In this document: positions 4,309 through 57,297 of the stretch, piece by piece
Position numbering within the stretch: the first letter of the stretch is position 1
Layout of the letters: each line of letters begins with the position of its first letter
Origin: Elusimicrobiota bacterium
GTDB lineage: Bacteria; Elusimicrobiota; UBA8919
Direction: 5' to 3'
Assembly: GCA_028718185.1 (NCBI GenBank)
Contig: JAQUMH010000004.1
Span: forward strand, 10,334 to 74,333
Length of the DNA stretch: 64,000 nt
The notes under the pieces: model-generated
Databases searched by the model: none
The model's input: the letters and a program-made list of their open reading frames with translations, nothing else
Told to the model about the DNA's origin: nothing
Translations under genes and position numbers: made by a program

Positions 4309-4376
4309 ATTGGTTGCAACTTCTACATCTATCCATGTTTGCCAACCACCTGTTGCCGGAACAGTGATTGGTGGTG

Positions 4377-10064: not shown

Positions 10065-10119
10065 ACCTTTCCCTCCAGTTTTTCTATATATTTGATTCCT
10101 AATTTGGTTTATTTTCATA

Positions 10120-23357: not shown

Positions 23358-23563
23358 TATAACAAATTTTCTTTATTTGTCAAATAATATTAAAAAAGTT
23401 TTTTAATAGCCTATGTAGTGATTAATGTACAATAAAACAAGAAGCAAGTATTCTAAATCTTACTTCTTGCATCTTGTTTCTTGCTTCAAGTGTTAGTACG
23501 TCGAACCTAACCCACCACTAAACCGTGCGTGCAAGGACATAGACTAAGGACATTGGATTGTCT

Positions 23564-26239: not shown

Positions 26240-26418
26240 TAAAATACCCCCTTTTTGAAATATGCTTCGCGTAATTTATTGTAATTTATAGTAATATGTT
26301 GTTTAATTTCTATAAATTTCTTAATTTCCATAAGTTTCAATATTTAATTTTTTTGAACATTGAACCTCGCCCACCACTAAATCGTCGGTGGGCAGGGACA
26401 TCAGACTAATGACTGTCT

Positions 26419-29139: not shown

Positions 29140-29149
29140 TAAATACCCC

Positions 29150-29225
29150 CAATTAGGTTATAGAGTTATAGGGTTTTTAACTCTATAAACTCTACGAACC
29201 CTATGAACACTATAACTCTTTTTTT
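29150..29225. repeat. CTATAAC/GTTATAG-family inverted repeat.
   Basis: gttatagagttatagggtt ... aactctataaactctacgaaccctatgaacactataactc. Confidence 0.5.
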
Positions 29226-42100: not shown

Positions 42101-44537
42101 CTAATGTGCCGCCAGGTGTTCCTTCATATAAAAACCAATAGTTGTGACCGACAGATGTTAGTGTCATCTTTGCGTACTCAGGATATATTTCCCAATAACA
42201 TTCCCAACCACCGCCTACTACTGAATGAATTTTCGCTTTAATAGGACCTGAACTAACTAAATCAGTTGTACCGTTAGTTGCATTAGGATGAAAACCGGGT
42301 AGTGCATCACCGTGAATCATATTAGGTATCCCGCGATATATATCACCTTCATTGCCGGCTGTTGGCGCACTATGATAGTTTATCCAGTCGTTGCCGGCAC
42401 TATCTACAAGACTTGAAAATCCTGCGCCTGCTTTCTGGTAATAATATGTCCCCTGGTCTGTCACTATTTTATAACAGTCCTTGCCTTCATCCGTTGAGTT
42501 TGTTAGTGCTACATGTGCTGTTACTGAAGGAACTGTTAAATTTGTACCTGTGTTAAAATATATATGATAATATCTTGTAGCATTCGCTACTGTCGTATTG
42601 TCCATAATAAACACAAGTGTCCCAGCCGCATTTGTAGTTGCGTTATATGTGCTTGACTGGTCAAACTGGAACGGAACTGATGCATTGACTACCGTACCAT
42701 CTCCAAGAACTTCTACTACACGGATAGAACCTGGGTCGAATGCTCCACTTCCTCCCAATCCGGTTATTAATGTCGTGAAATTTATATCTTTTTCTACGGG
42801 TTTATTTTTCCTTTCATATGCGCCTGCCTGGATATCCAACCCTACGCGATAATTCCAGCTATCATTCCACCAATTACCTACGGTTGAACCTCCGGTTACG
42901 GTTATACTAACAAGATTGGATACTCCTATGTTCCCAAGATTATCAGTTGATTTTACTGAAATAACATAACTTCCTGCGGCAACATTTGACCATGTGTAGT
43001 TATATGGAGAACTAGTATCTTCTCCTAACTTAGTAGAACCATTATAAAATTCTACTTTACTTATTGTTCCATCACTGTCTGTTGCCGTTGCATTGATTGT
43101 TATATTCGCAGGTGAATCAAATGATGCATTATTACTTGGAGCTGTTATACTCGCGGTTGGTATTCCTTGAGTTGTATATTTAACTAATAGTACCGGTCCG
43201 GGCCAGTTTACTTCAAGTGCATGATGCTGTGTATTGCAACTCATATAAAAGTCATTTGTGCCGGTGTGTAATAAATTTGGATTAAAATCATATGTATTAA
43301 ATGCGGGGGCTACCACTGCGCCAATCGGTCCTGCTAATTGACCTCCGGCATCCACTATCCTCACGTTATTAATACCAAATTCACGGATACTGGCTGCAGC
43401 ACAAGGAACAAGGCTTTCCTGTCCTGCACCACACCAGGTTGCTATCATAAGTTTTGCACCTGTCGCATTGGTTAATTGTTCATTTATAGTATAAGAACAT
43501 GTCCTTGGATTAGATGTAAAACTAGCAGCACAAAAACCCGGTGGAACATTATTTGAAGCATATAGTTTTACAGAATAGCTGGTTCTGGAAAAGGTAAGAT
43601 TATCTACAGCATCTGTTATATAACACATACCATCATTACCTACTATACGAGCTACTACCTTCATTGGCTGATCCTGGTCAGGTATCCAGCGAGTATCCCA
43701 TGTTGCCGAATAGGGACTGGTAGTATCAGTGCCTATATGTTTATCAAGTACTCCGTCTTTATATGTATGATGCCAGTTTTGAAAACGGCCATCGCCTTCC
43801 CAGTTAAAGTCTTTATACCAGCCAATAAAATCTACTTGTCTTATTCCACCTGTATATGTAGGCACATTGGCTGTGAAAGTCTGACTATCTCCTAATGCAC
43901 TCCCTGAAGTCGGTGATGTGATGCTGCCTGTTGGATGAGTTTTGGAACTGCTATAATATACTCGAATTGTAACTGAATATACCCAGAAAAATGGCATACC
44001 GCCACCTTGTGAACCGGCAGTAAAAGAAATATTATTGTTACCTGCAATTAGCGAGCCTGCTCCACTTAACGGAACAACTGTTGGTACTGTATTATATAAT
44101 GTCCTGAAGTAATAACTCCCGCTTGTTGGTGTTGTAGGCAGCGGTAAAGGTTTCCAGTCGTTATCGCTTGTGCTATTTACACGGAACTTCTGGTCTTGTG
44201 TGCCATCATGACCACCCCAATATGATATATATACTTCTGCTTTTGTTGCTCCGGTAGTATCTACTGAATTCACTGTCGCAGTAACTGCCGAATTTCCCCC
44301 ACAACTTGTTAAAGTACAGCCTCCATATCCTGCGCATGGATCTGATGAAGTAGTGTCGTGAGCAGTGTACGGATTTCCACAAATAGCTGTACCGCCATAC
44401 CAACCTGTGGATACTCGCGTAAAATCTTTGTAAATATTGTCTGTTCCGGGATAAAAATCTGCCCAACTTTTAGTTACAATGCCACTCGCAAATATTAACG
44501 CCGCTAAAAACATACACCATCTAATAATCTTACCCAT
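36189..44537 (-). CDS. Giant surface protein B (about 2780 aa). It has a signal peptide, Ig-like domains, a putative GH5/GH140-like TIM-barrel region, (CBM6 plus CHB_HEX_C) x3 plus CBM6, FN3 x2, a beta-sandwich region and a T9SS type-A CTD. It is the intact paralog of gene A.
   Basis: Likely true start ATG at 44537 (MGKIIRWCMFLAALIFASGIVTKSWA), preceded by GGGAGGAAAAGGT. The ORF track start at 44591 reads the UTR in frame. The domain order is collinear with A. The C-terminus ends ...KIYPNPYNPATAVLGKLKIINLPMNSNMKLYNVTGELVRELKE...WDGKDSDGDKVGRGIYIYQIE...KIGLIK. Confidence 0.8.
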   Translation of the reverse strand: MGKIIRWCMFLAALIFASGIVTKSWADFYPGTDNIYKDFTRVSTGWYGGTAICGNPYTAHDTTSSDPCAGYGGCTLTSCGGNSAVTATVNSVDTTGATKAEVYISYWGGHDGTQDQKFRVNSTSDNDWKPLPLPTTPTSGSYYFRTLYNTVPTVVPLSGAGSLIAGNNNISFTAGSQGGGMPFFWVYSVTIRVYYSSSKTHPTGSITSPTSGSALGDSQTFTANVPTYTGGIRQVDFIGWYKDFNWEGDGRFQNWHHTYKDGVLDKHIGTDTTSPYSATWDTRWIPDQDQPMKVVARIVGNDGMCYITDAVDNLTFSRTSYSVKLYASNNVPPGFCAASFTSNPRTCSYTINEQLTNATGAKLMIATWCGAGQESLVPCAAASIREFGINNVRIVDAGGQLAGPIGAVVAPAFNTYDFNPNLLHTGTNDFYMSCNTQHHALEVNWPGPVLLVKYTTQGIPTASITAPSNNASFDSPANITINATATDSDGTISKVEFYNGSTKLGEDTSSPYNYTWSNVAAGSYVISVKSTDNLGNIGVSNLVSITVTGGSTVGNWWNDSWNYRVGLDIQAGAYERKNKPVEKDINFTTLITGLGGSGAFDPGSIRVVEVLGDGTVVNASVPFQFDQSSTYNATTNAAGTLVFIMDNTTVANATRYYHIYFNTGTNLTVPSVTAHVALTNSTDEGKDCYKIVTDQGTYYYQKAGAGFSSLVDSAGNDWINYHSAPTAGNEGDIYRGIPNMIHGDALPGFHPNATNGTTDLVSSGPIKAKIHSVVGGGWECYWEIYPEYAKMTLTSVGHNYWFLYEGTPGGTLDPSTDACVRPGGANGVETPLSATGIWAGDITPEWAYFKDGSLNRSIFFAHSEDDSQPESYWPILHDVVKSDLTVFGFGRNYIAGNDAVNVTKYMSAVPAHFTMGLYNDKTYPVMSKVIESSYRDLGVVQRTAEKKDSVSSAVPIKLHPDNPRYFLYKGQPTVLIGSNEHYGAVLNLDFNTTTYLDTLQANGLNYTRIFTGVYVEPSYTMCNPPWWIIDENTLGPKSDKLSCPFARSTTPGFYDDTPSAVSPKHPSNKFDLTKWDDNYFARLKGFVKMAGDRGIVVEVTFFTPYWNTNDNPGQVMWIRSPFKASNNINGVGNTASWTTSGLNSVWDINGNDGLRPYQEAMVTKIVQELNTYDNVIYQPSIEPNYNGTETNQVMSVTFDNDIISKIVAADTPKKHLISQNAVGDNNGSDTPLANVDILSWDFYSEDPSDVRVSAYNGYPKPIANDEITYHKQDDAWYRRTGWRWIIYGGALYNYLDLSFTTTKADGSWNLIPPTACGTQSIGSGNPALRKCYHILRDFIHSVNFIKMTRDVSRGINAWGLVGDSTNKQYAFYLTGPTSVTVNLLAGDYKAEWIDTKSMTADNQLLVVKTETIASHPGGNKTLNAPSYSGDIALRILDTAVHVPPVVSISTIGVINGSNAPATLTIDVNASSSDGIKQVDFYNGGNWLGTDSSSPYEYIWNNVPAGSYSITAKATDNSSGNTTAMSASQIVTITGGSVPPSTQQAYPNGVAWTIGAGTTTIEAENYDMLTSGVGEGETYHDIDTANKGNAYRTTEGVDIEAIPGASNGYDVGWAHPGEWLEYSINVNQGGNYKVIAVAGSGITNASTFHIEFGPHGATSTATPLVSVPNTGDWVTYTEVTVAESVTLTAGNQIMKLVLDSGTTDVGNFDCIKLIKLSAEDPNIVATPTISPGAGTFTGSVTVTLGCATSGAEIRYTTNGTDPTSSSTLYSAPFALTASATVKARAFKAAMTDSSVNSVAYTITGVSTQQAYPSGVAWSIGAGTTTIEAENYDMLTTGIGEGEAYHDTTVGQQDHANTYRTTENVDVEIVASASNGYDVGWVQPGEWLEYSINVNQGGNYKIIASAGCGVSNASPFHIEIGSLVTPSVSIPNTVDWQAFTDVTVADSVTLPSGNQIMKLVMDAGSTDTGNFDYIKLVRVSAETPNTVETPTITPGTGSYASYVTVTLGCATSGAEIRYTTNGTDPTSSSTLYSAPFTLTASATVRARAFKTAMTDSSINSAAYTVTSVSTQQSYGNSGNPWAIITGTSTIEAENYDWITTGGSGEGLAYHDMDATNRGGAYRTTEGVDVENVIIGNGGYDIGYVQPGEWLEYSINVNQGGDYKVIARAGCGISGATPFHIEFGPHNATNLVTPSVSVPNTVEWQAFTDVTVAESITLTAGNQIMKLVMDAGSTDVGNFDYIKLISLTTDTTPPSVSVVTPTNVTGSGVVITWTTNEPANSKVEYGLTTGYGSATPVTDADGVYSHSVTLSGLTQNTLYHYRMVSVDMNGNPTTTGDYSFTTTSNDPNPPVISNVVAGVTLNSAVIKWTTDENSDSQVAYGTTTAMGTITTLDPTSTRLHSVPISGLQKGKTYYYKVYSRDSSNNLATSAQYSFKTYNLKHRIYTYYYDDGTTTTKVGASAAASLKFKVQVYNVDENSIATDYTGTLTLTTKNSKSSVLDTTDSTLITADAGEKEVAIPFRSDINTIELTGDVTAPVVISFNDMYIAKLVGYQGGSIRGSNGLKILIPTGVLSANKYLASIKTSAAPAVQNSMKYVNTVNPICYDFGELTFNNNAPVLQNQVFTRAVNITIPYTAADIGTLNEDGLRIYYWTGTDWDLVSGVQTVDKVNNTITATVKHFSTYRILGSYVSADMSNVKIYPNPYNPATAVLGKLKIINLPMNSNMKLYNVTGELVRELKEIDFGNLGWIEWDGKDSDGDKVGRGIYIYQIEDAAGSKKSGKIGLIK

Positions 44538-44693
44538 ACCTTTTCCTCCCGTTTTGCCATATATTTTATTAAAATTTTGTTTTATTTTCATATTTTAATC
44601 TTTTTGACATCGGGCTATCTTTATTTACATCTTACCATTTATTCTTTAATTTTTCAATCTTTTTTGACCTCGGACATTGGACATCGGACTGCT

Positions 44694-45647
44694 TTATTCT
44701 TTTCCGCCCCCAAACCTTATACCTAGCGATACTCTGTGCGTGTCGCCTAAATCTTTTGTCGGAACAAACGCATAATCAAGATTAAATGTTGAACTCTCTC
44801 CACCCATCTTAAACCCGCCGCCTAATGTATAACTCTCCTCATGATAACCTATCTTGTAGCCTGCACGAATTGCTATCATCTCTGCTACTATTAACTCCAT
44901 TCCGATGTTCTCTTTTGTTATCGCACTGTCTAATCCATAATTAACGTCGGCAGCTATTGTTAAATTATTCTCACCTTCAAATGCTGATAGCTTCTTGCCT
45001 AACCCAGCTTTTATATTTCCGGGTAAACTATCACTTCCTACCTTACCACCTATGTTCTGAACTGCCAGTCCTAATTGTATTCCGCCTTTATTGGGAACAT
45101 ATTCTACACCTAAATCTAACCCAAATCCGGATGCAGTATCACTGTCTATCTTCTCACTTACCATCTTTAAACTGCCACCTACATTTATTGTTTCATCTAC
45201 CTGCTTGCCGTAACTTATCGCACCACCCATATCATTTGCACTATAACTGCCTACGCTGCCTACCGCATCATATGCGCCATTGGCATCTTCTAATGTCTTG
45301 TCCATACTGCCATAATTAAGGTACATTACCTGTAACCCTATTGTTGAACTTTCGTTTATTGGGTGTCCTATAGCCAGATATTCGTAATTTATTCCTTCAA
45401 AATATGATAAATGCATAAATGATAACTCGGTTGCGCTGACTGAACCTAATCCTGCCGGATTCCAATATACGCTATTGACATCTTCAGCTACTGCTACCTG
45501 TGCACCACCCATAGCTTCCTGTTTCGCACCTATGCCTACTTTCAAAAACTGCATAGCAGAACTACTAATGTTAGCTTCTAAATTGCCTGTACATATAGTA
45601 CCTACTACCATTACTGCAAATATCACAGTGCTAAGCACTTTGCGCAT
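44694..45647 (-). CDS. PorV/PorQ-family outer-membrane beta-barrel protein, paralog 2.
   Basis: About 80% identical to paralog 1 (MQFLKVGIGAKQEAMGGAQVAVAEDVNSVYWNPAGLG...). Likely start ATG at 45647 (MRKVLSTVIFAVMVVGTICTG) after AAGGGGGAAAAT. It is directly upstream of gene B. Confidence 0.55.
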   Translation of the reverse strand: MRKVLSTVIFAVMVVGTICTGNLEANISSSAMQFLKVGIGAKQEAMGGAQVAVAEDVNSVYWNPAGLGSVSATELSFMHLSYFEGINYEYLAIGHPINESSTIGLQVMYLNYGSMDKTLEDANGAYDAVGSVGSYSANDMGGAISYGKQVDETINVGGSLKMVSEKIDSDTASGFGLDLGVEYVPNKGGIQLGLAVQNIGGKVGSDSLPGNIKAGLGKKLSAFEGENNLTIAADVNYGLDSAITKENIGMELIVAEMIAIRAGYKIGYHEESYTLGGGFKMGGESSTFNLDYAFVPTKDLGDTHRVSLGIRFGGGKE

Positions 45648-45734
45648 ATTTTCCCCCTTATAGTTTTTAATTTCGCTTATTGTTATTTTCATAAAGCTCT
45701 CCAATTTAGTACTGTTCTTGTGTTCTCGGTTTAT

Positions 45735-45815
45735 TATCCCGATTTTTATTTATAACTTAATATGTAATCGGGATTGTTTTATTGGTCTCCGGTAGGGGAC
45801 TCAATAAAACAAAAA
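45735..45815. repeat. REP-like unit (AT-loop hairpin cccgat...atcggg) plus the perfect hairpin ttgttttattggtctcc-ggta-ggggactcaataaaacaa.
   Basis: It matches the units at 15902-16060 and 56640-56700. Confidence 0.5.
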
Positions 45816-45864
45816 AGAAGTATATTAGAAAACTAGTTAATAATTAGTTGATTAAGTTTTTAAC

Positions 45865-45896
45865 CTAATTCGCTAATTCACTAATTTACTAATCCA
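45865..45896. repeat. Tandem octamer array (ctaattcg ctaattca ctaattta ctaatcca).
   Basis: The same array occurs at 389-420 and 56751-56782, always abutting the 5' end (plus-strand sense) of the conserved leader element. Confidence 0.55.
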
Positions 45897-46080
45897 CTTC
45901 TTTTGTTTTCGGTAACCTTGTTAGCTTGATAGTTAGATCTTTGTAATTTCTACTTTATTTCTATTTATTACAAGATCTATTTTAATTATTTGTCGTTTAT
46001 CGGCAACCTGTTGGCTTTCACTATCTTAGCCCTTGGTTTTGCGAACTCATCCTGATTTCTCAGGAGTAGCCTTTTCGGAG
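45897..46080. repeat. Conserved intergenic structured element, copy 4 (core only).
   Basis: Core identical to the other copies. The hairpin variant cctga/tcagg is compensatory relative to cccga/tcggg. Confidence 0.6.
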
Positions 46081-46410
46081 TTTTACTTTATTTTATCTTT
46101 GCCTCCTTTCGATTATTTATCTTATTTACTATTTCTTAAGGTTTTTATTATTTAAATATTCTTTTTAATTTGTATCTTCTAATAGTAGTATAACGTATAG
46201 TTACAAAAATGTCAATATCCATAATTGCCGTTATCTTATCTATAATTGCTAAAGAACATTAATTAGCTATAATTACTTTTTACGTGTAAAACTAAATCTT
46301 ATTTAAAAACTCTCCGTTGGTTGATGCTCACATCTTGCTAACATATAATCACTTCTTGTGCTTCACTATATATATAACACACTATTGATTTTCTGTCAAG
46401 GTCTTTTTTT
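46081..46410 (-). promoter_or_regulatory. Conserved 330 nt regulatory block, copy 1. It holds a minus-strand sigma70-like promoter (TTGACA at 46216-46211, N17, TATACT at 46193-46188). Immediately upstream of its -35 lies a direct repeat ATAATTGC-N13-ATAATTGC (46222-46250, 21 bp periodicity) that looks like an AraC/XylS-type operator.
   Basis: About 85% identical to 56966-57297, including the promoter hexamers and the direct repeat. The transcript would run through leader-element copy 4 into the PorV-like/gene B operon. Confidence 0.45.
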
Positions 46411-46721
46411 TATGATAAATTGTCGCAATAAATATCATTATTTTTTTAATTATTTTTCATTTCTCGTCGGATTATCAAATGTGTTGTTATCGGCAATTGT
46501 TATATCTTTATCTATTATTGTTATATATTAATTTTAACAATATGCTATAAAAACTAAATAATGCTCGGTAATATAAACGGTGCCACTTTTTACTACTATA
46601 CTTTTATCTAATATTAGGGTTTCTAAAAAAACGATATTGCTTAAAAATTAAATATTATTTTAATGTATAGGAATTTCAATGTTTGTAGTTGCACGCCCTT
46701 GGCGTGCCTAACTTAAAACAA

Positions 46722-46748
46722 AAGGTGCTAAAATCAACTTAGCACCTT
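46722..46748 (-). terminator. Intrinsic terminator-like hairpin for the minus-strand gene 46919-50749 (stem aaggtgcta/tagcacctt, then TTTGTTTT on minus).
   Basis: Direct reading. It is preceded by a GC palindrome gcacgcccttggcgtgc (46691-46707) and the conserved atgtataggaatttcaatgtt block. Confidence 0.45.
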
Positions 46749-46918
46749 AAATATTTATTATTTATTCGAGTAACCTTTCAACCACATTAGACTTTGAACA
46801 TTGACATCAGACTTCGGACGCCTTTATTTTACTTCTCAAACTTAATATTAGTCTCAATCTTTTTTCAAATTAACTAAGTCTCTAATCAACTAATTAACTG
46901 GCACCATAAGATGGTGCG

Positions 46919-49900
46919 CTACTTCTCTATCGCAATTTTTACTTTCTTTATTCCTGTGGTACCTTCTATATATATTATATATACTCCACTTGCTACTAAC
47001 TTGCCACCATTATTCTTGCCATCCCATACAACATTACCACTATTACCACTTTCTACTAACTCCCTTGCTAACTCGCCGCCTAGTGTATATATTTTTACCG
47101 GTGCTCCTGCTGTTAATCCTTCTATCGTCATTCCTTGAACATGTTTCGCAGGATTATACGGACTAGGATATATATTCACATTACTTAAATCTTTTGCTGA
47201 CAATACTGATTCCAATAACGCAAACATACTTAAATGACTACTTCTTCCCACGACCTTGTTATCACTAGGATAAACTGTCGTAGGCAATGCTTCCCACTGC
47301 TGGTTATTCTCATCATAGTAACCTACTACAAATTTGTTCTCATCATAGCCAACTATCTCACTTTCATCATAATTTATTGTGATAGTTATTTCTTTTAATG
47401 GTTGGAGATTCTTGTCATTTAAGATATCTACTCCATAGCCTACTACTTTTGTTGATGTTATATCACTTATCGGCGCATTTATCGCTGTTAGTGTTAAATT
47501 CACTGTCGTAGAAAATGCTTCTTTGGGTACAAGAACACTTATCTCACTATCCACACTGCTATTCTCACTTATTGGTGTTACTGCCATTCCACTGCTTATC
47601 TGTATCTGCGGACTAACTATTCTTGTCACACTTAACGGTTTGCCAATAAAATTTTGTTCTTCCTTGTCACTGTGCAAACCTATATATTCCATCTTATTCG
47701 GCCAGAACCGCCAATTGCTATTTACAGGTTCTACACTGTAATTACCAATTCCTAAATCTGCAAACTCATAATAGCCATCTTCTCCAGTGGTATAACTACC
47801 ATTTATATTATCTGCCATCGGTTCAATGGCGGACACTCTATTTAACTTCATTGCCACTTCGCTTATCCCACTTTTGCTCTTGTATACTTGCAGATTACCT
47901 TTAATACTATATAATGTCGCAGCTGGTACATATGTTATTGTTATTGTCGTCACCATTATATTATCTGATGTGTCCGTCACTCTCGCATATACTATGTTTA
48001 ACCCACTCGTCAATATTATACTTTTACTCCATGGAGATAATGTTCCGGCTACCGCTTCGTACTTTATTTCTCCCGTTCCTACTTCTAAATTTTTCAATCC
48101 TACGTTGTCGAATGCTGTACCACTTACAGTTAATAATGATGTCGTTACTGTTGAGTTATCTTCAGGTGAAGTGATCTTTATTACTGGTAATATATTATCA
48201 GGTTCGGCTATCGTAAAAATACTATCAGATATATCTGTAGGGTTACCGTCAATTTCCTGAACTCTTATTCGACAGGTTGTGCTTGGAGTGTTTGGAATAG
48301 TTACAAGCTGACTGCCATCATTAGCAGTATTAAGGACTAATGATGTCCATGTAGTCCCGCTATTTGTTGATATATCTATATTAATATTTCCTACTGTTCC
48401 TGCATTTGTCCATTTTACTGTCTGGTTGCTATTTGTCGGCCATGTTTCATTACCATTTGGTGATGTTACGGTTATACCCGGTGTTTCTGAACCTCCACTG
48501 CAAAATAGTGCGCTAGACGGAATATCCTGCCACGACAGACCGGGTCCTTCCCACCTGACATTGAGTCCGTCAGGTCCGGAACGTTCTGTTAAAATTACTC
48601 TAATAAAATGTTTACCAGCTTTGAGACCCACATTGCCAGATGCTTCTAAAAAGACGTTATAGTTGCCGCCACATACCGCAGGTATCTTAGTAGTTCGTGA
48701 AACAACTAACGTAGAGCCGATGTAGAGCTGACTCGCCTCTTTCGAGACTATAGAAAATGAGTATCCGCCATCAACCGGAATATCGATATAACCGGTGAAA
48801 ACCAAGCCATAATTGTCAGCCCTTCTGTTCGGAATAGAAACTGTAAATTGGGAAATTATTCCGGTTCGAACAGACGTCATTGCATCAAAATTAGGTATAT
48901 TATCCCATATTCCTTCATAATATTTATAGTCCAGACCCTGAGTTAATCCAGTAGGATTTTCAGGATTTCTAAAAGAATTTACAACCATGACAGTCCTGGA
49001 TGTCCAGACGATTTTTCCGCTATTATCGGTAACCTTCAACAACACCCGGTATTTTCCCGTATTGTCCCAGAGCGTTCCTGTTGTATCGGAATAGGAATGA
49101 GTCACGACTTTTCCGCTTCCGCTTGTCCCATCTCCGAAAAACCATTCATAAGAAGAAATGGTTCCATCGGGATCATGAGAACCGGATGCATCAAACGTTA
49201 CCTGCTGAAGAGGAACGATTGCGGAAGGCGAAAAAGTAAATGAGGCACGCGGTATACTATCACTTACCACAAACTGGATATTATTCACCGTGCCTTGCGT
49301 CGTGAGTGGGATATCCTGATTAGATGCAGCGATTTTATTGGCAATCTCGACATTCTCAAAAACAAGTGTATCGATAGATGCGGCTCTTACTGTAGATGGT
49401 ACCATTGTCATTTTTTCAATTGCCCAGATGTTCTTATAACGGATATTGCTCCAATTCGTATACGGACTGTCAATTATCAGCAAATTATACCAGCTCTCGA
49501 GCCGGATATTCTCAAAAAGATATCCCGTATTGGTCCCGCTTCCGCCGGACTGCCAGTTACAGAGAAGTGAAAAAGGTACAGTGCATGAACCTAATCCCAT
49601 GTGAATAACATCGCAGTTTCTCATGACAAAGTTACTGGAATTGGTGACTTCAGTACTCCAGCCGACCCTGACTATATTAGAAATACTTGTTGACAGGACA
49701 CAATTTGTGATAGTGACATCTTTAATACTATTAGAAATAGCGCCAGGAGAACCTACTATATCGTTTTGTTCTATCGCGATGATATCGTCTGCGGCTCTGA
49801 TAAAACAGTCATTGATAACGATATTGTTTGCATTCCTCTTGATATGTATCCCGTCTACGTTGGCGTTAACTTGGCATGCCCCGACTTCTGTGACATTGTC

Positions 49901-50749
49901 AAATGTAATGTTACTTGAATTATCCCCTATTATTACATGATATGTCCTGCTTTGGGTGACTATATGAATACCTTCAACGGTAACAGACTGAGCGTTGTAC
50001 ATGGTAATAGCCCGAACGTTGGGTTGCGGTGCGTCGATACCTTCGGTATTCACGTCATTATGAATAATTGTTCCTCGCCCAAGGATTTTCACATTCTGTG
50101 CATTAAAAATATTTATACTTCCTTTGACCACAGCTCCTCCATGAAGATACAAGGTCGTTCCGCTTGTCAAATCAATATTCTCCTCATAGTATCCGGGACC
50201 GTAATAACGCACCCCGGAATCGCCCTGCTTGGGCTGATTTACTTCGGGCTTACTTGCAAAGACAAAAAGCATATCGTCGGAAACAACACCGCCTGAAGAA
50301 GGATTAGAATATTTTCCCGGTTTAACTATTGCAAGCTTGGCGGGGTTTGACAAGGAAAATGTTATTGTATTTCCGCTGACAGTTGGCCTGATACATTGTA
50401 TCCATGGCTGCACTTCAACTCCCTGCGACCAGTAATCAGGTGTAGAAGCGGTGATCTTGATTTCAACGGTTCCTTCAAAGTCAAAAGACAAAGAGTAGTA
50501 TTTATCCCAAGCCTTGAATATTTGTGCCGGCTGTCCATTAATAGTTGCAGTAAAATAAGTGGTTTGCACCTGGGAAGGAAGCGGATAAATAGTCACCGTT
50601 GAAAAGACGTTTGAGATAAGCATCAATACAAGCAGAGAAGTACAACAAAGTCCTAACAATAATCCATTTTTTGAATGAAGTTTTGTAGCCACAACATAAT
50701 ATATGGTGACTATGACGACTAATAAAAACCACTTGCTGGTTTTATTCAT
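46919..50749 (-). CDS. Large secreted protein (1276 aa). It has a right-handed parallel beta-helix domain (GH28/GH49/pectate-lyase-like), a PKD domain, a PA14 domain, GEVED-like and Ig-like beta-sandwiches and a variant T9SS-type CTD (type 2, ends KIAIEK).
   Basis: Beta-helix repeats read ...NVTEVGACQVNANVDGIHIKRNANNIVINDCFIRAADDIIAIEQND.... PKD reads VTFDASGSHDPDGTISSYEWFFGDG. PA14 reads GLDYKYYEGIWDNIPNFDAMTSV...GYSFSIVSKEASQLYIG. CTD reads YPSPYNPAKHVQGMTIEGLTAGAPVKIYTLGGELARELVESGNSGNVVWDGKNNGGKLVASGVYIIYIEG...KIAIEK. Confidence 0.65.
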   Translation of the reverse strand: MNKTSKWFLLVVIVTIYYVVATKLHSKNGLLLGLCCTSLLVLMLISNVFSTVTIYPLPSQVQTTYFTATINGQPAQIFKAWDKYYSLSFDFEGTVEIKITASTPDYWSQGVEVQPWIQCIRPTVSGNTITFSLSNPAKLAIVKPGKYSNPSSGGVVSDDMLFVFASKPEVNQPKQGDSGVRYYGPGYYEENIDLTSGTTLYLHGGAVVKGSINIFNAQNVKILGRGTIIHNDVNTEGIDAPQPNVRAITMYNAQSVTVEGIHIVTQSRTYHVIIGDNSSNITFDNVTEVGACQVNANVDGIHIKRNANNIVINDCFIRAADDIIAIEQNDIVGSPGAISNSIKDVTITNCVLSTSISNIVRVGWSTEVTNSSNFVMRNCDVIHMGLGSCTVPFSLLCNWQSGGSGTNTGYLFENIRLESWYNLLIIDSPYTNWSNIRYKNIWAIEKMTMVPSTVRAASIDTLVFENVEIANKIAASNQDIPLTTQGTVNNIQFVVSDSIPRASFTFSPSAIVPLQQVTFDASGSHDPDGTISSYEWFFGDGTSGSGKVVTHSYSDTTGTLWDNTGKYRVLLKVTDNSGKIVWTSRTVMVVNSFRNPENPTGLTQGLDYKYYEGIWDNIPNFDAMTSVRTGIISQFTVSIPNRRADNYGLVFTGYIDIPVDGGYSFSIVSKEASQLYIGSTLVVSRTTKIPAVCGGNYNVFLEASGNVGLKAGKHFIRVILTERSGPDGLNVRWEGPGLSWQDIPSSALFCSGGSETPGITVTSPNGNETWPTNSNQTVKWTNAGTVGNINIDISTNSGTTWTSLVLNTANDGSQLVTIPNTPSTTCRIRVQEIDGNPTDISDSIFTIAEPDNILPVIKITSPEDNSTVTTSLLTVSGTAFDNVGLKNLEVGTGEIKYEAVAGTLSPWSKSIILTSGLNIVYARVTDTSDNIMVTTITITYVPAATLYSIKGNLQVYKSKSGISEVAMKLNRVSAIEPMADNINGSYTTGEDGYYEFADLGIGNYSVEPVNSNWRFWPNKMEYIGLHSDKEEQNFIGKPLSVTRIVSPQIQISSGMAVTPISENSSVDSEISVLVPKEAFSTTVNLTLTAINAPISDITSTKVVGYGVDILNDKNLQPLKEITITINYDESEIVGYDENKFVVGYYDENNQQWEALPTTVYPSDNKVVGRSSHLSMFALLESVLSAKDLSNVNIYPSPYNPAKHVQGMTIEGLTAGAPVKIYTLGGELARELVESGNSGNVVWDGKNNGGKLVASGVYIIYIEGTTGIKKVKIAIEK

Positions 50750-50929
50750 AATATTATTTATTTATTTATACCTGTCTATGGTAAGCAACTACAAAACTGG
50801 ATTTTTGACCAAGGACTACGGACTTCGGACGCTTTTATTTTACTTCTCAAACTTAATATTAGTCTCAATATTTTTCCCAATTAGCTAATTCTCTAATCAA
50901 CTAATTAACTGGCACCATAAGATAGTGCG

Positions 50930-53900
50930 CTACTTTTCCACACCAATCTTTATTTTCTTTGTTTCGCCTGTACCTTTTATATATAATACATATACACCAC
51001 TCGCCACTGTCTTACCACCTTCATTCTTACCATCCCATACTATACTGCCTCTTTCTCCGGTTTCTACCAACTCCCTTGCTAATTCTCCAACTAATGTGTA
51101 TATTTTTACCACTGCTCCGGCTGTTAAATTATCTATAGTCATTCCTTGAGCGTGCTTCATCGGATTAAATGGACTTGGATACACTTTTACATTACTTAAA
51201 TCAGTTACCGGAACTAATTCCAGTAACGCAAATTTGCTTAAATGATTACTTTTGGCTATTACCTTATTATAACTTGAATATACTGTTGATTGTAACGCTT
51301 CCCACCTCTTGTTATTTTCATCATACCAGCCTACTACTAACTTACTCTCGTCATAACCAGCTATTGAAATGTCGTCATAACTTATCGTTATAAGCATTTC
51401 CTTTGGCTGCAGGTTCTTGTCATTTACTATTTCTATTCCATAGCCTAATACCTTTATTGCCCGCCTGTCACTTACAGGCACATCTATTGCTTTTAACGTT
51501 AAATTCGCTGTAGTAGAAAACGCACCTATTGGCACCAAAACACTTATCTCACTATCCACACTGCTATTCTCACTTATTGGTGTTACCGCCATCCCGCTTG
51601 ATATCTGTATCTGCGGACTCACTATCCTTGTTACACTTAACGGCTTGCATATATAATTCTGTCCTTCCATATCAATACTTAAACTTGTGTATTCCATCTT
51701 CTTAGGCCAGAACCGCCAATCTTCTTTTTTAGGCTCTACACTGTAATCGCCGATTCCTAAATCCATAAACTCGTAATATCCATCTTCTCCAGTAATATAA
51801 CTGTTAATAATGCCACCACTTAAATTCATTGTTATCCCGCTTATACTGCTGCTGCTCTTGTATACTTGCACATTGCCAATGATATTGGATACTGTGGTAG
51901 TAGGAGCATATGTTACTGTTATTGTTGTTTCTTTCTGATTACTATGTGTAGATATATCAGTCGCTCTGACATATACCGTATTGGGACCTTTCTTCAATCG
52001 CACGGTTCCGCTCCATGTTTCTAATCCATTAACTGCTGAATATGTCCCGCTTTCACCTACCTTTATTTCTACTTTGCTTAATCCTAAATTATCTGATGCT
52101 GTTCCTCTTAAAGATAATAATGAGTTCGTTACTGTTGTGTTGTTTCCTGGTGTTGTAATTATTATTATTGGAGGAGTGGTCTCGGATAGTGCCGGGATAC
52201 CATATACTTCAAATTCATATAATGAATATCCATAAGGTCCTCTCGCAAGCCCGTTCATACGGACATATCTGCCACTACCATTTAACGCTATATCGTCTGT
52301 TCCGCCTGTTCCGCCTATCTTTGTGGCTACTGTTGTCCAGTCCATACGATTGTCTGATACTTGTATCTGGTAATCTTTTCCATATGCTGCTTCCCATCTT
52401 AATATTACTTCTGTTATGGTACACGTTATACCTAAATCTACATATATCCATTCCGAGTCACGGTACGGCGATTGTGATGCCCATCGGGTCCCAAGTTTCC
52501 CGTCTATTACATAATTAGGATTATCATTGCCATTTCCTGCTTCTACTGAAGATGCATAAGCAGTCGTACCTATTGCAAGATTTGCCGTCCCTTCTGTAGT
52601 TTTCCCACTTGCACAGTTGGATATTCCTGTCCAATTCGTAGCTACTTCATCTACTACCTTCATTGCAAAATAATAAACAGTATCTGCATTTAAGCCGTTT
52701 ACCGTATAACTCTGGTTACTACCGGCTATTAATGGCGTCGGTTCACCACTACACTGTGCTACACTTACCCAATCCCAGTTGATACTTGTTATACTATATG
52801 TCGCATAACGGATATCATAATCACTCGCCGTACCTGTGCCCCCATCATCGCCTACTGTTGACCAATTTAATACTATTGTTCTTCCTCCGGGATTACTGGT
52901 AGTTAAATCGTTTACTGTTGAAGGCGGTATCGTATCTGTCGGATCTGTTTCTTTGTTTACTATATTAGATATCCCTGACCAGTTATTTACATCGTCACCC
53001 GCCTTAATCGCAAAGTAATATATTGTACTTGAATTTAACCCTTTCACTGTGTAGGTTTGATTTGTCCCTACTGCTTGAGGAATTGGTTCATTACTGCATT
53101 GTGTAGCTGTAGCCCAATTACTGTTTGTTATAGGTGTCAATGCGTAGCGAATATCATAATTACTCGCTGTACCTATGTTACCATCGTCGCCTACTGCTGT
53201 CCAACTTAATTGGAGACTATTGCTGGTTGCAGTTGCACTCGCTAATGTGTTTATATCTGTTGGCGGGGTTGTGTCATTAAATGTTACGGTTACCTGGCTT
53301 GCTCCGGCAAGGTAATCATCCGATACGGCATGAACTGTTATTATATGATTACCTTGTGTATAGCCGGCTGTATTCCATGTGTATGTCGGACTTGCAGATA
53401 TCTTAACTAGTTTGTTATCTATAAAATAACGATATGAGACAACTGGATTGGTTGTCTCAGAATTAGGTGTAGCTGTTACTGATATATTTACGCTAGCACT
53501 TACTACAGCACCATTTACAGGAGAATTTATAGAAACGGACGGTGATAGCTTAAAAAAGTCGTCATCCATAACTTTATCATACACTGCTCTTTCTTCAGTG
53601 GTTAAATTATAAAGTTTAAATATTCCTATTCCAAGACCGGCAATCTGAGGTGAGTCTGCTCTCAAGTATTTTATCCACAAGTCATCATCCGGTGCATATC
53701 CGTCATAGATGTTTCCGCCACCAAGGATAGGAAATGTTTTTCCATCAAGCCTACGGTATTTTGCCCAGTTAGTATTCCTCTTAGTAAATGTTCTATAATC
53801 TTTGATTCCATGGTAGAAATATAACTCAGGTACATAAAAATCTATTACATCGGCTCCATTCGTCATCATTTCATCAAAACCATCTCCAAAATAAGCAGCA

Positions 53901-55447
53901 GTCACAAAAAAATTGGGATATTGTTGTTTCACCCGCCTAAGTGCATTTATGGATTTTTGGACTCGAGTATCCGAATCATTAGAAGCCCATTCGTCAATGG
54001 ATAACCCGTAATATCCTTCTTGAGCAGCCTCTAAGTAATTGTTATACATTTTTTCTTCAGTGTCAAGATACCATTCGTTAGTAATTGTATATGTCGGCAC
54101 CCTGCAAGCATAACTATATGGTATCGGAAGTTTCCCTTTTGCTATCATCCCATCGTGCCATGACTTGGTAGCCCACATTAAACCGGAAAAATTCATAGTT
54201 TCGTGAGGTTGCTCGCCAGGACCGGCACACCAGTAAATAATATATGGTATTTTTATAGGTGCGAGAGTAGGATTTGGATATATAGCACCTTCATGAAAAA
54301 GAAAATTGTTGTTCGGCAAAGTAACAAGCGGAGAAGTTGTTCCACCTGGTGAATTTGATATTGGTGACCAATTCGGCACTTCATCCGCAGCCTTTATTGC
54401 AAAGTAATATTGGGTGTTTGGAGAAAGTCCAAGTGCCATAATTGACTGGTTTGTACCAGCCCATTCTATCGGTAGCCAGTAAATGTCAATCGGTGTAGCT
54501 AAGTTCCAATCTGTTTCTGTTAATATAGGAAAAGTATAATATCTTATATCATACTTTGAAACTCTGTAGTCATTACCATCATCGCCGGGAGCAGTCCATG
54601 TAAGCGTAACTGAAGTAGGTGTGGGATTGATTGCAGCTAAATTATTTATTTGGGCCGGTGGTGTGGAGTCTGTAAGAGCTGATGTTGTCGCGCTCGGTGA
54701 ATTTGATGAAGATGACCAATTGGGCACATCATCTGCTGTTTTTATTGCAAAGTAATATTTAGTTGAAGGTGAAAGTCCGGCAATAGTGAATGTTTCTGTC
54801 CTGGACATTTCTTGCGGTGTTGGTGTAACTGCGACTTTAGTCGCAGAATCCCAGTTTGCATCTGTTATCGGTGAAAGTGAATATCTAATATCATATGAGA
54901 TATATCTTGATGCGACTATCCTTGAACTGTTGTTATCACCGGGTGCGGTCCATGTAAGTGTAACTGATTTTGCTGTTGTTCCGCTTACTATCAAATTATT
55001 TATTTTATCAGGTGGTATAGTATCTGTGAGAGCAAGAGTTGTTGCACTCGGTGATTTAGATATTGGTGACCAGTTAGACAATTTATCGCTTGCTTTGATT
55101 GCAAAATAATATTGTGTTGAAGGTGAAAGTCCAAAGACAATAAACGATTCAGCACAACCTGCAGGCTTTGGATTCGACTCACCTGTAACCTGAGTTGCAG
55201 AATCCCAGTTAGCATCCGATATTGGTGAAAGAGAGTACCTGATATCATATGTTATCGCTGTTCCTGTGTTGCCGTTATCGCCGACAGACCTCCATACAAG
55301 TGTTATTGTCTTGGATGTCGGGTATGCCGTCAGAAAATATGTTATCTTACCGGGCACACCGGATAATACACTTGTTGTAAACATACATGCTACAAAAATG
55401 CATATTATAAACATACAATATTTTTTTACCAATTTCTGTCTGAACAT
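50930..55447 (-). CDS. Large secreted protein (1505 aa). It has FN3 x3, the conserved unknown 330 aa domain (the same family as the C-termini of the three 900 aa paralogs), FN3 x2, an F5/8 type C discoidin domain, Ig-like domains and a type-2 CTD (ends KIGVEK).
   Basis: The unknown domain reads NNNFLFHEGAIYPNPTLAPIKIPYIIYWCAGPGEQPHETMNFSGLMW...GYYGLSIDEW...FFVTAAYFGD...DDDLWIKYLRADSP. The discoidin region reads GTRWASQSPYRDSEWIYVDLG...YGKDYQIQVSDNRMDWTTV...GRYVRMNG...YSLYEFEVYG. The CTD resembles that of 46919-50749. Confidence 0.7.
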   Translation of the reverse strand: MFRQKLVKKYCMFIICIFVACMFTTSVLSGVPGKITYFLTAYPTSKTITLVWRSVGDNGNTGTAITYDIRYSLSPISDANWDSATQVTGESNPKPAGCAESFIVFGLSPSTQYYFAIKASDKLSNWSPISKSPSATTLALTDTIPPDKINNLIVSGTTAKSVTLTWTAPGDNNSSRIVASRYISYDIRYSLSPITDANWDSATKVAVTPTPQEMSRTETFTIAGLSPSTKYYFAIKTADDVPNWSSSSNSPSATTSALTDSTPPAQINNLAAINPTPTSVTLTWTAPGDDGNDYRVSKYDIRYYTFPILTETDWNLATPIDIYWLPIEWAGTNQSIMALGLSPNTQYYFAIKAADEVPNWSPISNSPGGTTSPLVTLPNNNFLFHEGAIYPNPTLAPIKIPYIIYWCAGPGEQPHETMNFSGLMWATKSWHDGMIAKGKLPIPYSYACRVPTYTITNEWYLDTEEKMYNNYLEAAQEGYYGLSIDEWASNDSDTRVQKSINALRRVKQQYPNFFVTAAYFGDGFDEMMTNGADVIDFYVPELYFYHGIKDYRTFTKRNTNWAKYRRLDGKTFPILGGGNIYDGYAPDDDLWIKYLRADSPQIAGLGIGIFKLYNLTTEERAVYDKVMDDDFFKLSPSVSINSPVNGAVVSASVNISVTATPNSETTNPVVSYRYFIDNKLVKISASPTYTWNTAGYTQGNHIITVHAVSDDYLAGASQVTVTFNDTTPPTDINTLASATATSNSLQLSWTAVGDDGNIGTASNYDIRYALTPITNSNWATATQCSNEPIPQAVGTNQTYTVKGLNSSTIYYFAIKAGDDVNNWSGISNIVNKETDPTDTIPPSTVNDLTTSNPGGRTIVLNWSTVGDDGGTGTASDYDIRYATYSITSINWDWVSVAQCSGEPTPLIAGSNQSYTVNGLNADTVYYFAMKVVDEVATNWTGISNCASGKTTEGTANLAIGTTAYASSVEAGNGNDNPNYVIDGKLGTRWASQSPYRDSEWIYVDLGITCTITEVILRWEAAYGKDYQIQVSDNRMDWTTVATKIGGTGGTDDIALNGSGRYVRMNGLARGPYGYSLYEFEVYGIPALSETTPPIIIITTPGNNTTVTNSLLSLRGTASDNLGLSKVEIKVGESGTYSAVNGLETWSGTVRLKKGPNTVYVRATDISTHSNQKETTITVTYAPTTTVSNIIGNVQVYKSSSSISGITMNLSGGIINSYITGEDGYYEFMDLGIGDYSVEPKKEDWRFWPKKMEYTSLSIDMEGQNYICKPLSVTRIVSPQIQISSGMAVTPISENSSVDSEISVLVPIGAFSTTANLTLKAIDVPVSDRRAIKVLGYGIEIVNDKNLQPKEMLITISYDDISIAGYDESKLVVGWYDENNKRWEALQSTVYSSYNKVIAKSNHLSKFALLELVPVTDLSNVKVYPSPFNPMKHAQGMTIDNLTAGAVVKIYTLVGELARELVETGERGSIVWDGKNEGGKTVASGVYVLYIKGTGETKKIKIGVEK

Positions 55448-55561
55448 ACTAATTATCTCCTGTAAATCAATTAAAAGATTTGAGAAACATTAAAAAATTG
55501 GAAAGATTAGAAAAATTAAAATCTTTAAATCTTTTAATATTTAATCTTTTAATTGTCTCTA

Positions 55562-56596
55562 TTAGAATTTCACATTCAATGCTACTCTATGTGTATCGCC
55601 TAAATCGCCAAACGGAACAAATGCATAATCTAACCCATATCCCTTATAATCTAAACCAGCTCCTACACTTATCCCTTTTAATCCACTTATGTCTTTTGTT
55701 TTGGTGTTGTATCCTGCCCTGCCTATTAGTGTCGTTCCTTCACCCGCGTCATACTTATACTCAGTCCCTGCTCCTATTCCTATCCCACTGTCATTTACTG
55801 CTGTTATATCTAACCCGACTAACCATTCCGGTTGAATATTATATCCTCCACCTACACGTATTGTCATAGGTAAATTATCACTCTCTTCTACATACTTCAT
55901 CTTACTGCCTACATTCTGAACTGCTAACCCTATACTCATTCCGCTATCTATTGGCTTATATAACATTCCTACATCACCGGCTATCGCTGTCGCACTCTCC
56001 TTTATCTTGCTGCTTATATACTTTACTCCTACTCCTAATGACACATCGTCACTTACTATATTCCCATAACTTAACGTAACAGACATATCTGTTGGACTAT
56101 AATTACCACCTAATATTCCATTTATATCGCTTTCTTTTATATTACCATAATTTATATATTGCACACCTAACCCTATTACTCCTACACCTGCTATCGGCTG
56201 TCCATAACCTACCCAACTATAACCTATATCTTCAAACCAGACCGCATGCATTACACTTATTGATGTTTTTTCTATTCCAGCTAATCCTGCTGTATTCCAA
56301 TATATACTACTTGCTCCTTCACATACTCCTACTCCGATATCGCCCATCCCACTACTACGGGCGCCGGCTCCTATTTTTAAAAACTGGACTGCACTTGTCC
56401 CTGTATCATCTTTGCTAAAGGCAGCGTATGTGCTGCTTGAAACAAGAAGCAAGAAGCAAGAGGCAAGAAGCAAGAAACAAGATAACATCTGATTTCTGAC
56501 TTCTGGTTTCTGACTTCTAATTTCTGACATTGGACATTGTCCGCCACTAAACATTGGTGAAGCAGGGACTTTTGACTGTCTCTTTAAATTTTTCAT
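55562..56596 (-). CDS. PorV/PorQ-family outer-membrane beta-barrel protein, paralog 3. It is divergent (about 30-35% identity to paralogs 1 and 2) and has an unusual repeat-encoded N-terminal extension.
   Basis: VQFLKIGAGARSSGMGDIGVGVCEGASSIYWNTAGLAG... aligns with the PorV-like motif of paralogs 1 and 2. The C-terminus ends in F. ATG 56596 has a good SD (AGAGGT). An alternative start is ATG at 56488 (MLSCFLLLASCFLLLVSSSTYAAF). Confidence 0.5.
   Translation of the reverse strand: MKNLKRQSKVPASPMFSGGQCPMSEIRSQKPEVRNQMLSCFLLLASCFLLLVSSSTYAAFSKDDTGTSAVQFLKIGAGARSSGMGDIGVGVCEGASSIYWNTAGLAGIEKTSISVMHAVWFEDIGYSWVGYGQPIAGVGVIGLGVQYINYGNIKESDINGILGGNYSPTDMSVTLSYGNIVSDDVSLGVGVKYISSKIKESATAIAGDVGMLYKPIDSGMSIGLAVQNVGSKMKYVEESDNLPMTIRVGGGYNIQPEWLVGLDITAVNDSGIGIGAGTEYKYDAGEGTTLIGRAGYNTKTKDISGLKGISVGAGLDYKGYGLDYAFVPFGDLGDTHRVALNVKF
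56439..56530. repeat. Simple-sequence repeats inside the 5' coding region of PorV-like paralog 3: heptamer CAAGAAG/CTTGCTT x about 6 (56439-56481), then 13-mer tttctgacttct(g/a)(g/a) x about 2.5 (56491-56530).
   Basis: Direct reading. On the sense strand it reads cttgttt cttgctt cttgcct cttgctt cttgctt cttgttt, encoding the hydrophobic core of the signal peptide. Related caagaagcaag repeats occur at 20760-20810 and 23430-23480. Confidence 0.6.
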
Positions 56597-56782: not shown

Positions 56783-56965
56783 CTTCTTTTGTTTTCGGTA
56801 ACCTTGCTGGCTTAATAGCCACAAGCGGTTTATCACAAAGCGGTTTACACGCTTGTGATTTACTTGCTTGTGGTTTGTCGTTTATCGGCAACCTGTTGGC
56901 GTTATCTATCTTAGCCCTTGGTTTTGCGAACTCATCCCGCTTTCACGGGAGTAGCCTTTTCGGAG
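56783..56965. repeat. Conserved intergenic structured element, copy 5 (core only).
   Basis: The core is conserved. The hairpin variant cccg ctttca cggg has an extra insertion (acaagcggtttatcacaaagcggtttacacgcttgtgatttacttgcttg) that is shared with copy 1. Confidence 0.6.
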
Positions 56966-57297
56966 TCTTACTTTCTTATACCTTTACCCCCTTTTGATTA
57001 CTTATCTTATTTGCTATTTCTTAAGGTCTTTAGTATCTAAACATTACTTTTTGATTTGTATCTTCAAACAGTAGTATAACGCATAGTTACATAAATGTCA
57101 ATATCTATAATTGCCGTTATCTTATCTATAATTGCTAAAGAATGCTAATTAGTTATAATTACATTTTATGAGTAAAACTAAATCTTATTTAAAAACCCTC
57201 TGATAGTTAATGCTCATATCTTGCTAATACATAATAACTTCTTGTGCTTTACTATATATATAACACACTATTGATTTTCTGTCAAGGTCTTTTTTTT
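56966..57297 (-). promoter_or_regulatory. Conserved 330 nt regulatory block, copy 2. It has a minus-strand promoter (TTGACA at 57102-57097, N17, TATACT at 57079-57074) and the direct repeat ATAATTGC-N13-ATAATTGC (57107-57135) abutting the -35.
   Basis: About 85% identical to 46081-46410. It lies between the divergent AraC paralog 2 and the leader / PorV-like 3 / cargo operon. Confidence 0.45.

Follow-up and report, generated by a model that had tools for sequence, protein, structure and literature searches.

The stretch of DNA analysed here, 64 kb in length and referred to below as the window, belongs to the metagenome-assembled genome (MAG) of an uncultured Elusimicrobia bacterium and carries nearly all of its long open reading frames (ORFs) on the minus strand. 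It encodes three outer-membrane β-barrel proteins of the PorV/PorQ family, here called P1, P2 and P3, each followed by one or two giant cargo proteins, and five ORFs of the window terminate in an immunoglobulin (Ig)-like sorting domain of about 90 residues, the C-terminal domain (CTD). A preliminary description of this region had noticed that the type of barrel covaries with the type of CTD on the cargo encoded downstream, and had taken this covariation as evidence of receptor-ligand co-evolution and of a direct, specific interaction. On the basis of the analysis reported below, the best explanation, and in our judgement a probable one, is that the barrels are dedicated carriers or anchors of their cargos and that the types match as a result of the co-inheritance of barrel and tail in cassettes. 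The names that the NCBI pipeline gives to the barrel and CTD proteins are already correct. The barrel and cargo genes are the following.

10202-11164, minus strand: P1, 'type 1' PorV/PorQ-family barrel; NF033709 172.1 bits
44694-45704, minus strand: P2, 'type 1' PorV/PorQ-family barrel; NF033709 178.0 bits
55562-56596, minus strand: P3, divergent 'type 2' PorV/PorQ-family outer-membrane barrel; NF033709 204.8 bits, Pfam PorV 54 bits
988-10118, minus strand: P1 cargo, about 3040 residues, split into ORFs 4377-10118 and 988-4308; type-1 CTD at 988-1275; collinear with the P2 cargo
36189-44591, minus strand: cargo after P2, 2800 residues, gap of 102 bp; type-1 CTD at 36189-36476
50930-55447, minus strand: first cargo after P3, 1505 residues, gap of 114 bp; Fn3, F5/8-type-C and Big_7 modules; type-2 CTD in the last 91 residues, at 50930-51205
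46919-50749, minus strand: second cargo after P3, 1276 residues; PKD and PA14 modules; type-2 CTD at 46919-47194
12635-15859, minus strand: chimeric cargo, 1074 residues, with no barrel gene directly upstream; type-1 CTD at 12635-12922

P1 and P2 are 84.7% identical over 314 alignment columns, so that their high similarity was rightly recognized although the figure first given was approximately 80%, and P3 is 34.9% identical to P1 and 34.3% to P2, within the 30-35% originally quoted. P0121, a protein of an Elusimicrobia MAG, matches P2 with 100% identity. All three barrels score well above the 90-bit cut-off of NF033709, and none reaches the equivalog models for PorV (NF033710, cut-off 250 bits; P1 65.6, P2 67.4 and P3 122.1 bits) or PorQ (NF033711, cut-off 220 bits; 128.1, 133.2 and 121.0 bits, respectively); they are members of the PorV/PorQ family that are orthologues of neither PorV nor PorQ. 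The PorP/SprF model TIGR03519, with a cut-off of 90.55 bits, gives 20.3 bits for P1, 19.5 bits for P2 and nothing for P3, and Pfam PorP_SprF, with a threshold of 22.3 bits, is matched only marginally, at 25.4 and 21.5 bits. The AlphaFold2 model of P3, with a predicted local distance difference test score (pLDDT) of 76, has a FadL-like outer-membrane β-barrel fold, for which the top matches in the PDB are the Flavobacterium johnsoniae PorV chains 8gl6_F (E 1e-14) and 6h3i_F (E 1e-12), with template modelling (TM) scores of about 0.63-0.66, followed by FadL. Likewise, a profile of the P3 clade, defined as barrels at least 42% identical to P3, has PorV (6h3i_F, E 2e-20) as its sole solved relative.

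For comparison we assembled an outside set of 159 loci encoding relatives of the window barrels (80 from species-representative genomes and 79 from metagenomes), which spans about 15 phyla, mostly uncultured. Many barrel paralogues are present among these relatives, and some barrels are fused C-terminally, according to Pfam, to CarboxypepD_reg plus OmpA, to OmpA (in some cases with FlgD_ig) or to TPR repeats (L012:2105-3700, L040:10016-11896, L001:9992-11977 and L049:1349-3343; proteins P0094, P0097 and P0114). These extensions are PorE-like peptidoglycan-anchoring modules, of the kinds from which PorE is built.

The CTDs of the window fall into two types. Type 1 (CTD1) is found on 988-4308, 36189-44591 and 12635-15859, with mutual identities of 82-87%, and type 2 (CTD2) on 50930-55447 and 46919-50749, which are 72% identical in this domain; identity between the types is 43-49%. 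The tails end in ...KKxGKIGLIK or ...KKxKIxxEK and share a conserved lysine near the end, and the tail sequences quoted in the preliminary description are present as stated, including the type-2 tail on the cargo that P3 precedes and on 46919-50749. The five cargos, all of which begin with a hydrophobic, signal-like (Sec) segment, are giant proteins predicted to be secreted and are built from CBM6/CBM35, Fn3, F5/8-type-C, PKD, PA14 and Big_7 modules. CTD1 is under strong purifying selection, with a ratio of nonsynonymous to synonymous substitution rates (dN/dS) of about 0.05. Among solved structures the CTD profile agrees best with PorZ, in its C-terminal domain (5m11_A, residues 671-749, E 4e-7), matches to FlgD and PorU being weak; NCBIfam likewise gives matches to the C termini of PorZ and PorU, that of the 46919-50749 CTD to PorZ scoring 49.7 bits. 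The type B model TIGR04131 has no match at E<=0.01 among the window cargos. When the CTD profile was used to count proteins with CTD1 or CTD2, it yielded nothing longer than short fragments, which were not informative.

Two of the cargos call for comment. The CTD of the P1 cargo is joined to the remainder only across a one-base frameshift near 4380 (4370-4390), which divides the protein within a CBM6 domain, and for this reason the P1 cargo is either a disrupted gene (pseudogene) or the product of an assembly error; the ORF immediately downstream of P1, 4377-10118, lacks a CTD. The initial statement that P1 and P2 each precede a cargo with a type-1 CTD thus holds directly for P2, and for P1 only if the frameshift is bridged. 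Cargo 12635-15859 is of mixed ancestry in a sliding-identity comparison: over the 250 residues before its CTD it shares 45-70% identity with the CTD2 cargos but only about 20% with those that carry CTD1, and the identity switches exactly at the CTD boundary, beyond which it is 75-92% identical to type 1. This protein is a natural chimera of a type-2-lineage body and a type-1 tail.

Outside the window, the immediate upstream same-strand neighbour of the barrel gene carries a CTD in 89 of 153 cases (58%), compared with 9 of 145 immediate downstream neighbours (6%) and with 29 of the 892 background genes of the same loci (3.3%). The upstream enrichment corresponds to an odds ratio of 41 (p 6e-61), and the median gap between the two genes is 13 bp. 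Among other Elusimicrobiota a CTD gene lies upstream in 14 of 20 cases and downstream in none, and the linkage is also seen in Zixibacteria, Ignavibacteria, Cloacimonadota, KSB1, Firestonebacteria, Aerophobetes, Krumholzibacteriota and others, whereas no other conserved neighbour of the barrel gene was found in the outside loci, where a conserved third gene downstream of the barrel was also looked for and is absent. The linkage of barrel and CTD genes is very strong and directional, with an order opposite to that of the window. Together with the PorV-like fold, it upholds a functional tie between barrel and CTD, which is the part of the originally proposed interaction that stands; the specificity that had been argued from covariation does not follow. 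In seven loci (L007, L012, L016, L040, L054, L056 and L063) the gene directly upstream of the barrel encodes a small CTD protein of 178-192 residues, consisting of a signal peptide, a sorting domain and little more, and the four of these seven barrels that were covered by Pfam scans, directly or through a close homologue, have OmpA-type extensions.

The linkage also bears on what the barrels do. The genes around them, which include CBM6 and CBM35 domains as well as a glycoside hydrolase and a sugar transporter of the ABC type, suggest glycan use, and a FadL-like fold would suit channels that take up products of the neighbouring glycan-binding proteins and make no contact with the CTD. We consider such a role highly improbable, since PorV is the best match of the barrels in both sequence and structure, the linkage goes with the CTD and not with the type of cargo body, and homologues are fused to the peptidoglycan-anchoring modules described above. 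Direct binding between barrel and CTD is established for PorV, PorQ and PorP/SprF (PMC10994853, PMC10202324, PMC9143113): the CTD of PorZ is retained on PorQ and that of PorU on PorV (PMC10202324), and the cognate barrel of a type B cargo is a PorP/SprF-like protein whose gene comes immediately after that of the cargo, with PorE, which binds peptidoglycan, taking part in some cases (PMC9143113, PMC12618676).

Within the window the barrel gene comes first, and the gaps to the downstream cargo genes are short (83-114 bp), with no terminator found in them. The spacer that separates 46919-50749 from P2 measures 1214 bp and contains, in this order, a strong terminator-like hairpin, a promoter and an aptamer. 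The regulatory features of the three units are as follows.

46722-46748, minus strand: terminator-like hairpin, 11-bp stem and T run, after cargo 46919-50749; boundary between P3 operon and P2 unit
46187-46215, minus strand: sigma-70-like promoter TTGACA-N17-TATACT upstream of P2, 11/12 matches; consensus match only
57073-57101, minus strand: the same promoter site upstream of P3; consensus match only
45999-46081, minus strand: c-di-GMP-I (GEMM-I)-like aptamer in the P2 leader; RF01051 29.5 bits, model positions 1-87
56884-56966, minus strand: c-di-GMP-I-like aptamer in the P3 leader; RF01051 32.0 bits, model positions 1-87
11457-11539, minus strand: c-di-GMP-I-like aptamer in the P1 leader; RF01051 26.3 bits, model positions 1-87
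534-618, minus strand: c-di-GMP-I-like aptamer in a fourth leader at the left edge; RF01051 21.8 bits, full model
11791-12582, plus strand: AraC-family regulator, divergent from P1; HTH_18, HTH_AraC and cupin domains
57578-58375, plus strand: AraC-family regulator, divergent from P3; 50% identical to 11791-12582

These signals bear on which cargo is to be paired with which barrel. If the order that prevails in other genomes, and in other Elusimicrobiota in particular, also governed the window, the true partner would be the upstream cargo (46919-50749, with CTD2, for P2, and 12635-15859 for P1) and the match of types would be partly accidental. This seems very unlikely to us: the 1214-bp gap with its terminator, promoter and aptamer stands before P2, an opposite-strand AraC gene separates P1 from the cargo upstream of it, and the canonical arrangement has a median gap of only 13 bp, whereas the short gaps free of detectable terminators are on the downstream side. 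Because of these short downstream gaps and of the terminator, promoter and leader in the spacer before P2, the barrel with its downstream cargo is the better pairing in this window. The original pairing by downstream cargo, although it reverses the usual order elsewhere, is accordingly backed locally by the terminator, the promoter and the riboswitch-like leader.

The leaders resemble the c-di-GMP-I (GEMM-I) riboswitch family RF01051, a class that responds to cyclic di-GMP (c-di-GMP), in that all four align to the full 87 positions of the model. The GAAA-capped first hairpin of the aptamer shows compensatory changes at three stem pairs among the four copies, and a long AT-rich terminator-like hairpin trails each aptamer-like leader. 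Rfam at its gathering thresholds has no match in the window, the riboswitch having surfaced only at relaxed thresholds, and no metagenome contig gave an exact match to the conserved core of the aptamer. Control of the barrel operons by c-di-GMP may be proposed from these sequence features. The fourth leader was considered as a possible sign of a fourth barrel gene, but the ORF behind it, which has a signal peptide and runs off the left edge, is not PorV-like. The leaders of P2 (45768-46444) and P3 (56657-57332) are 85% identical over 688 bp, including promoters, aptamer and terminator-like hairpin; since protein identity is only 35% between the barrels that follow, copying or homogenisation of the regulatory region has taken place apart from the coding parts. 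P2 has no divergent AraC-family regulator such as those of P1 and P3, and a tblastn search of the 1.2-kb spacer upstream of P2 revealed no AraC remnant.

Central to the weight of the covariation is the history of the cassettes themselves. Those of P1 and P2 are collinear across leader, barrel and cargo, with a DNA identity of 81-89% in the leader, the barrel and the C-terminal third of the cargo; the N-terminal two-thirds of the cargos are collinear at the protein level only (46% identity). Synonymous divergence (dS) is 0.82 in the barrel (dN/dS 0.09) and 0.80 over 898 C-terminal cargo codons, and the two cassettes are the outcome of a single en bloc duplication, with barrel and cargo of equal age. 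The type-2 cargos in turn form a tandem duplicate, as the last 330 codons of 46919-50749 and 109 bp past its stop codon are 79% identical in DNA to 50821-51802. Because P1 and P2 go back to one duplication, the window holds only two independent cassette lineages, and since two diverged cassettes will always 'covary', the match within the window is without statistical weight; a perfect match among three cassettes has a probability of 1/3 under label permutation, and the observed agreement is no better than chance. The covariation reported for the interval 44694-56596 is nevertheless real: all four operon cargos fit the type of their own barrel, even though that interval includes neither P1 nor either of the type-1 operon cargos, and a third type-1 cargo, 12635-15859, is without a barrel gene in front. 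What cannot be maintained is its use as evidence of receptor-ligand co-evolution, for which it supplies two independent data points; taken alone, it adds little.

A wider view comes from the barrels and tails of the outside set. The distance matrices of barrels and adjacent CTDs are correlated (101 pairs, Mantel r 0.58, with no permutation above 0.135; r 0.76 for the first 51 pairs), CTD similarity tracks barrel similarity also where the cargo bodies are unrelated, and 12 of the 15 P3-clade barrels stand beside tails that are closer to CTD2 than to CTD1. The barrels outside the P3 clade show no tail preference (33 against 42). Whether a barrel leans toward P3 or toward P1/P2 was not predictive of the CTD type in the first 48 outside loci (rho -0.13), and the correlation that emerged when P3-clade metagenome loci were added is modest (98 pairs, rho 0.32) and comes from points that are not phylogenetically independent. 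These results are compatible with a functional pairing. In most outside loci, however, the part of the cargo gene that encodes the CTD lies right against the barrel gene, so that a wider correlation is to be expected from co-inheritance of adjacent DNA, which explains it equally well.

These data have to be set against two stronger propositions. The first is that type-1 and type-2 barrels and CTDs have co-evolved into orthogonal receptor-ligand pairs, each barrel accepting its own tail only. The agreement of all four operon cargos with their barrels, the parallel between barrel and CTD similarity despite unrelated cargo bodies, the presence of many barrel paralogues where one generic carrier would do, and the strong purifying selection on CTD1 are what such pairs would produce. 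Two further observations lean toward selection for matching, namely that P3 has kept its CTD2 partner in spite of the reversed gene order of the window, a pairing also found in 12 of the 15 distant loci of the P3 clade, and that the chimeric cargo 12635-15859 carries, on its type-2-lineage body, the tail type of the nearest barrel, type-1 P1, although local gene conversion would account for the chimera too. Other observations lean the opposite way. One barrel is flanked closely by two CTD genes, with CTDs only 18-44% identical, in seven loci (L059, L060, L065, L074, L146, L149 and L150), P3 has two cargos, and PorV of Bacteroidota takes varied type A CTDs by means of a plastic, mainly hydrophobic pocket with a poorly conserved contact surface (PMC10994853); not even type B pairs are free of crosstalk (PMC12618676). 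With only two independent lineages in the window, the rho values given above and a correlation that linkage alone would yield, co-evolved type specificity is possible, and strictly orthogonal pairs strike us as unlikely, if by no means far-fetched.

The second proposition is the converse, that any barrel handles any CTD and that the genes are linked only for the sake of matched amounts of carrier and cargo. The plastic recognition by PorV, the service of one barrel to two cargos in the P3 operon, the seven barrels flanked by very different CTDs and the existence of a cargo, 12635-15859, without a barrel of its own are all compatible with a generic partner, as is the leader common to all three units, which suggests co-regulation. 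It is harder to see, if the barrels were interchangeable, why proteins only about 35% identical should be maintained side by side, why the CTD types stay distinct despite the 85% identity of the P2 and P3 leaders noted above, and why purifying selection on CTD1 should be so strong. We regard a wholly generic partnership as doubtful.

The explanation that we prefer, dedicated carriers co-inherited with their cargos, can be outlined as follows. Each of the three transcription units would begin with a promoter and a c-di-GMP-I-like leader, followed by the barrel gene and by the genes of one or two giant proteins that bind glycans, and the barrel would be a dedicated carrier or anchor for whatever cargo its own transcript encodes, binding the cargo CTD at the outer membrane and keeping the cargo on the cell surface, in the manner of PorQ with PorZ, PorV with PorU, and PorP/SprF with type B cargo. 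This role is suggested because of the PorV-like fold of the barrel, the PorZ-like CTD, the known binding by PorQ, PorV and PorP, and the PorE-like fusions; we infer physical binding and surface anchoring by analogy with those systems, while a dedicated partnership of barrel and cargo as such is well supported. Barrel and tail would have been inherited together as cassettes, so that the covariation is real but due to descent, P1 and P2 representing one duplication and the pairing of P3 with CTD2 an older lineage that is present in distant relatives too.

Several observations weigh against this reading. The T9SS (type 9 secretion system) translocon (SprA/Sov) and motor have been described for Bacteroidota only (PMC12618676), and NCBIfam and Pfam scans detected no T9SS core gene in the 64-kb window. 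Membership of the window CTDs in type A appears borderline: TIGR04183, with a cut-off of 23 bits, gives 23.8 bits for 988-4308 and 22.4 bits for 12635-15859 and has no match at E<=0.01 to the two CTD2 cargos, PF18962 gives 20.8 bits against a cut-off of 27, and matches to FlgD_ig and CHU_C are weak. The barrel-first order of the window is the reverse of the 89 outside cases, and the usual upstream rule would pair the CTD2 cargo 46919-50749 with the type-1 barrel P2. Unlike accepted members of RF01051, all four aptamer-like leaders are below the gathering score of 35 bits (21.8-32.0 bits). Finally, a structure model of P2, tried for fold comparison, was set aside as too uncertain (pLDDT 61).

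Of the known systems, the closest in gene organization is that of PorP/SprF with type B cargo, exemplified by SprB/SprF of F. johnsoniae and PorP-PG1035-PorE of Porphyromonas gingivalis, in which the barrel gene likewise adjoins the cargo gene and several paralogous pairs occur per genome. There the cargo, bound through its CTD, is held on the surface, as is proposed for the cargos of the window. The outside loci share with sprF the position of the barrel gene directly downstream of the cargo (PMC12618676), which is reversed in the window, and outside homologues with PorE-like CarboxypepD_reg/OmpA modules recall PorP-PorE (PMC9143113). The differences are that the window barrels belong to the PorV/PorQ family, that the tails, of about 90 residues, are type-A-like or FlgD-Ig-like, and that the host is an Elusimicrobia bacterium. 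The attachment complex of P. gingivalis (PorQ-PorZ and PorV-PorU) offers a case in which an Ig-like CTD that is not cleaved off stays firmly bound to a barrel of the PorV/PorQ family (PMC10202324, PMC10947112), and the window CTD profile is closest to the PorZ CTD among solved structures; unlike PorZ and PorU, the window cargos are giant glycan-binding proteins, and their barrels fall short of the PorQ and PorV equivalog models. No sortase was seen in the window. With the PorV shuttle of Bacteroidota the system shares the family and fold of the barrel and a cargo with a Sec signal peptide, a C-terminal Ig-like signal and a near-terminal lysine, but there one PorV, unlinked to the cargo genes, handles all type A cargo (PMC10994853, PMC12618676), whereas the window has diverged paralogues, each in a cargo operon.

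Another part of the window, 17990-31666, is a duplicated block in which 18003-20677 is 82.5% identical to 26429-29100 and 20861-23219 is 81.5% identical to 29219-31570. Three proteins of about 900 residues with Fn3, CBM6 and Big_7 modules and no CTD are encoded at 17990-20701, 23564-26239 and 26419-29139, their N-terminal parts resembling the CTD2 cargo 50930-55447. The ORF 20868-23357 (829 residues) encodes, as a single protein, a Pfam SBP_bac_1 (ABC solute-binding) domain fused to a BPD_transp_1 (permease) domain, and the single ORF 29225-31666 (813 residues) is its duplicate, 81% identical in DNA.

Cognate barrels are already known for type B tails with PorP/SprF, where they are established, and for PorZ with PorQ, where they have been proposed. 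What differs here is the linkage of PorV/PorQ-family paralogues to type-A-like tails outside Bacteroidota and across many phyla, of which searches of the full-text literature found no description. The view derived from Bacteroidota is that all type A tails depend on a single PorV and that private carriers exist for type B only; the present data suggest that private partnerships of barrel and cargo are older and more widespread than the model organisms show, and that they may act in lineages for which a type 9 machinery is not on record. The window, with its two types each of tail and barrel and a natural chimera in which the tail has been swapped, offers a set of pairs in which these ideas can be tested. 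In the most far-reaching version, cargo and PorV/PorQ-family barrel would constitute a self-contained surface-display module in phyla without a described T9SS, Elusimicrobia among them, in which diverged barrels and their own type-A-like tails form orthogonal, co-evolved pairs and which, in this lineage, is controlled by a c-di-GMP riboswitch. This combination of features is distinctly unlikely in our estimate; if true, it would mean that cognate carriers are a feature of the PorV/PorQ branch as well as of PorP/SprF with type B cargo.

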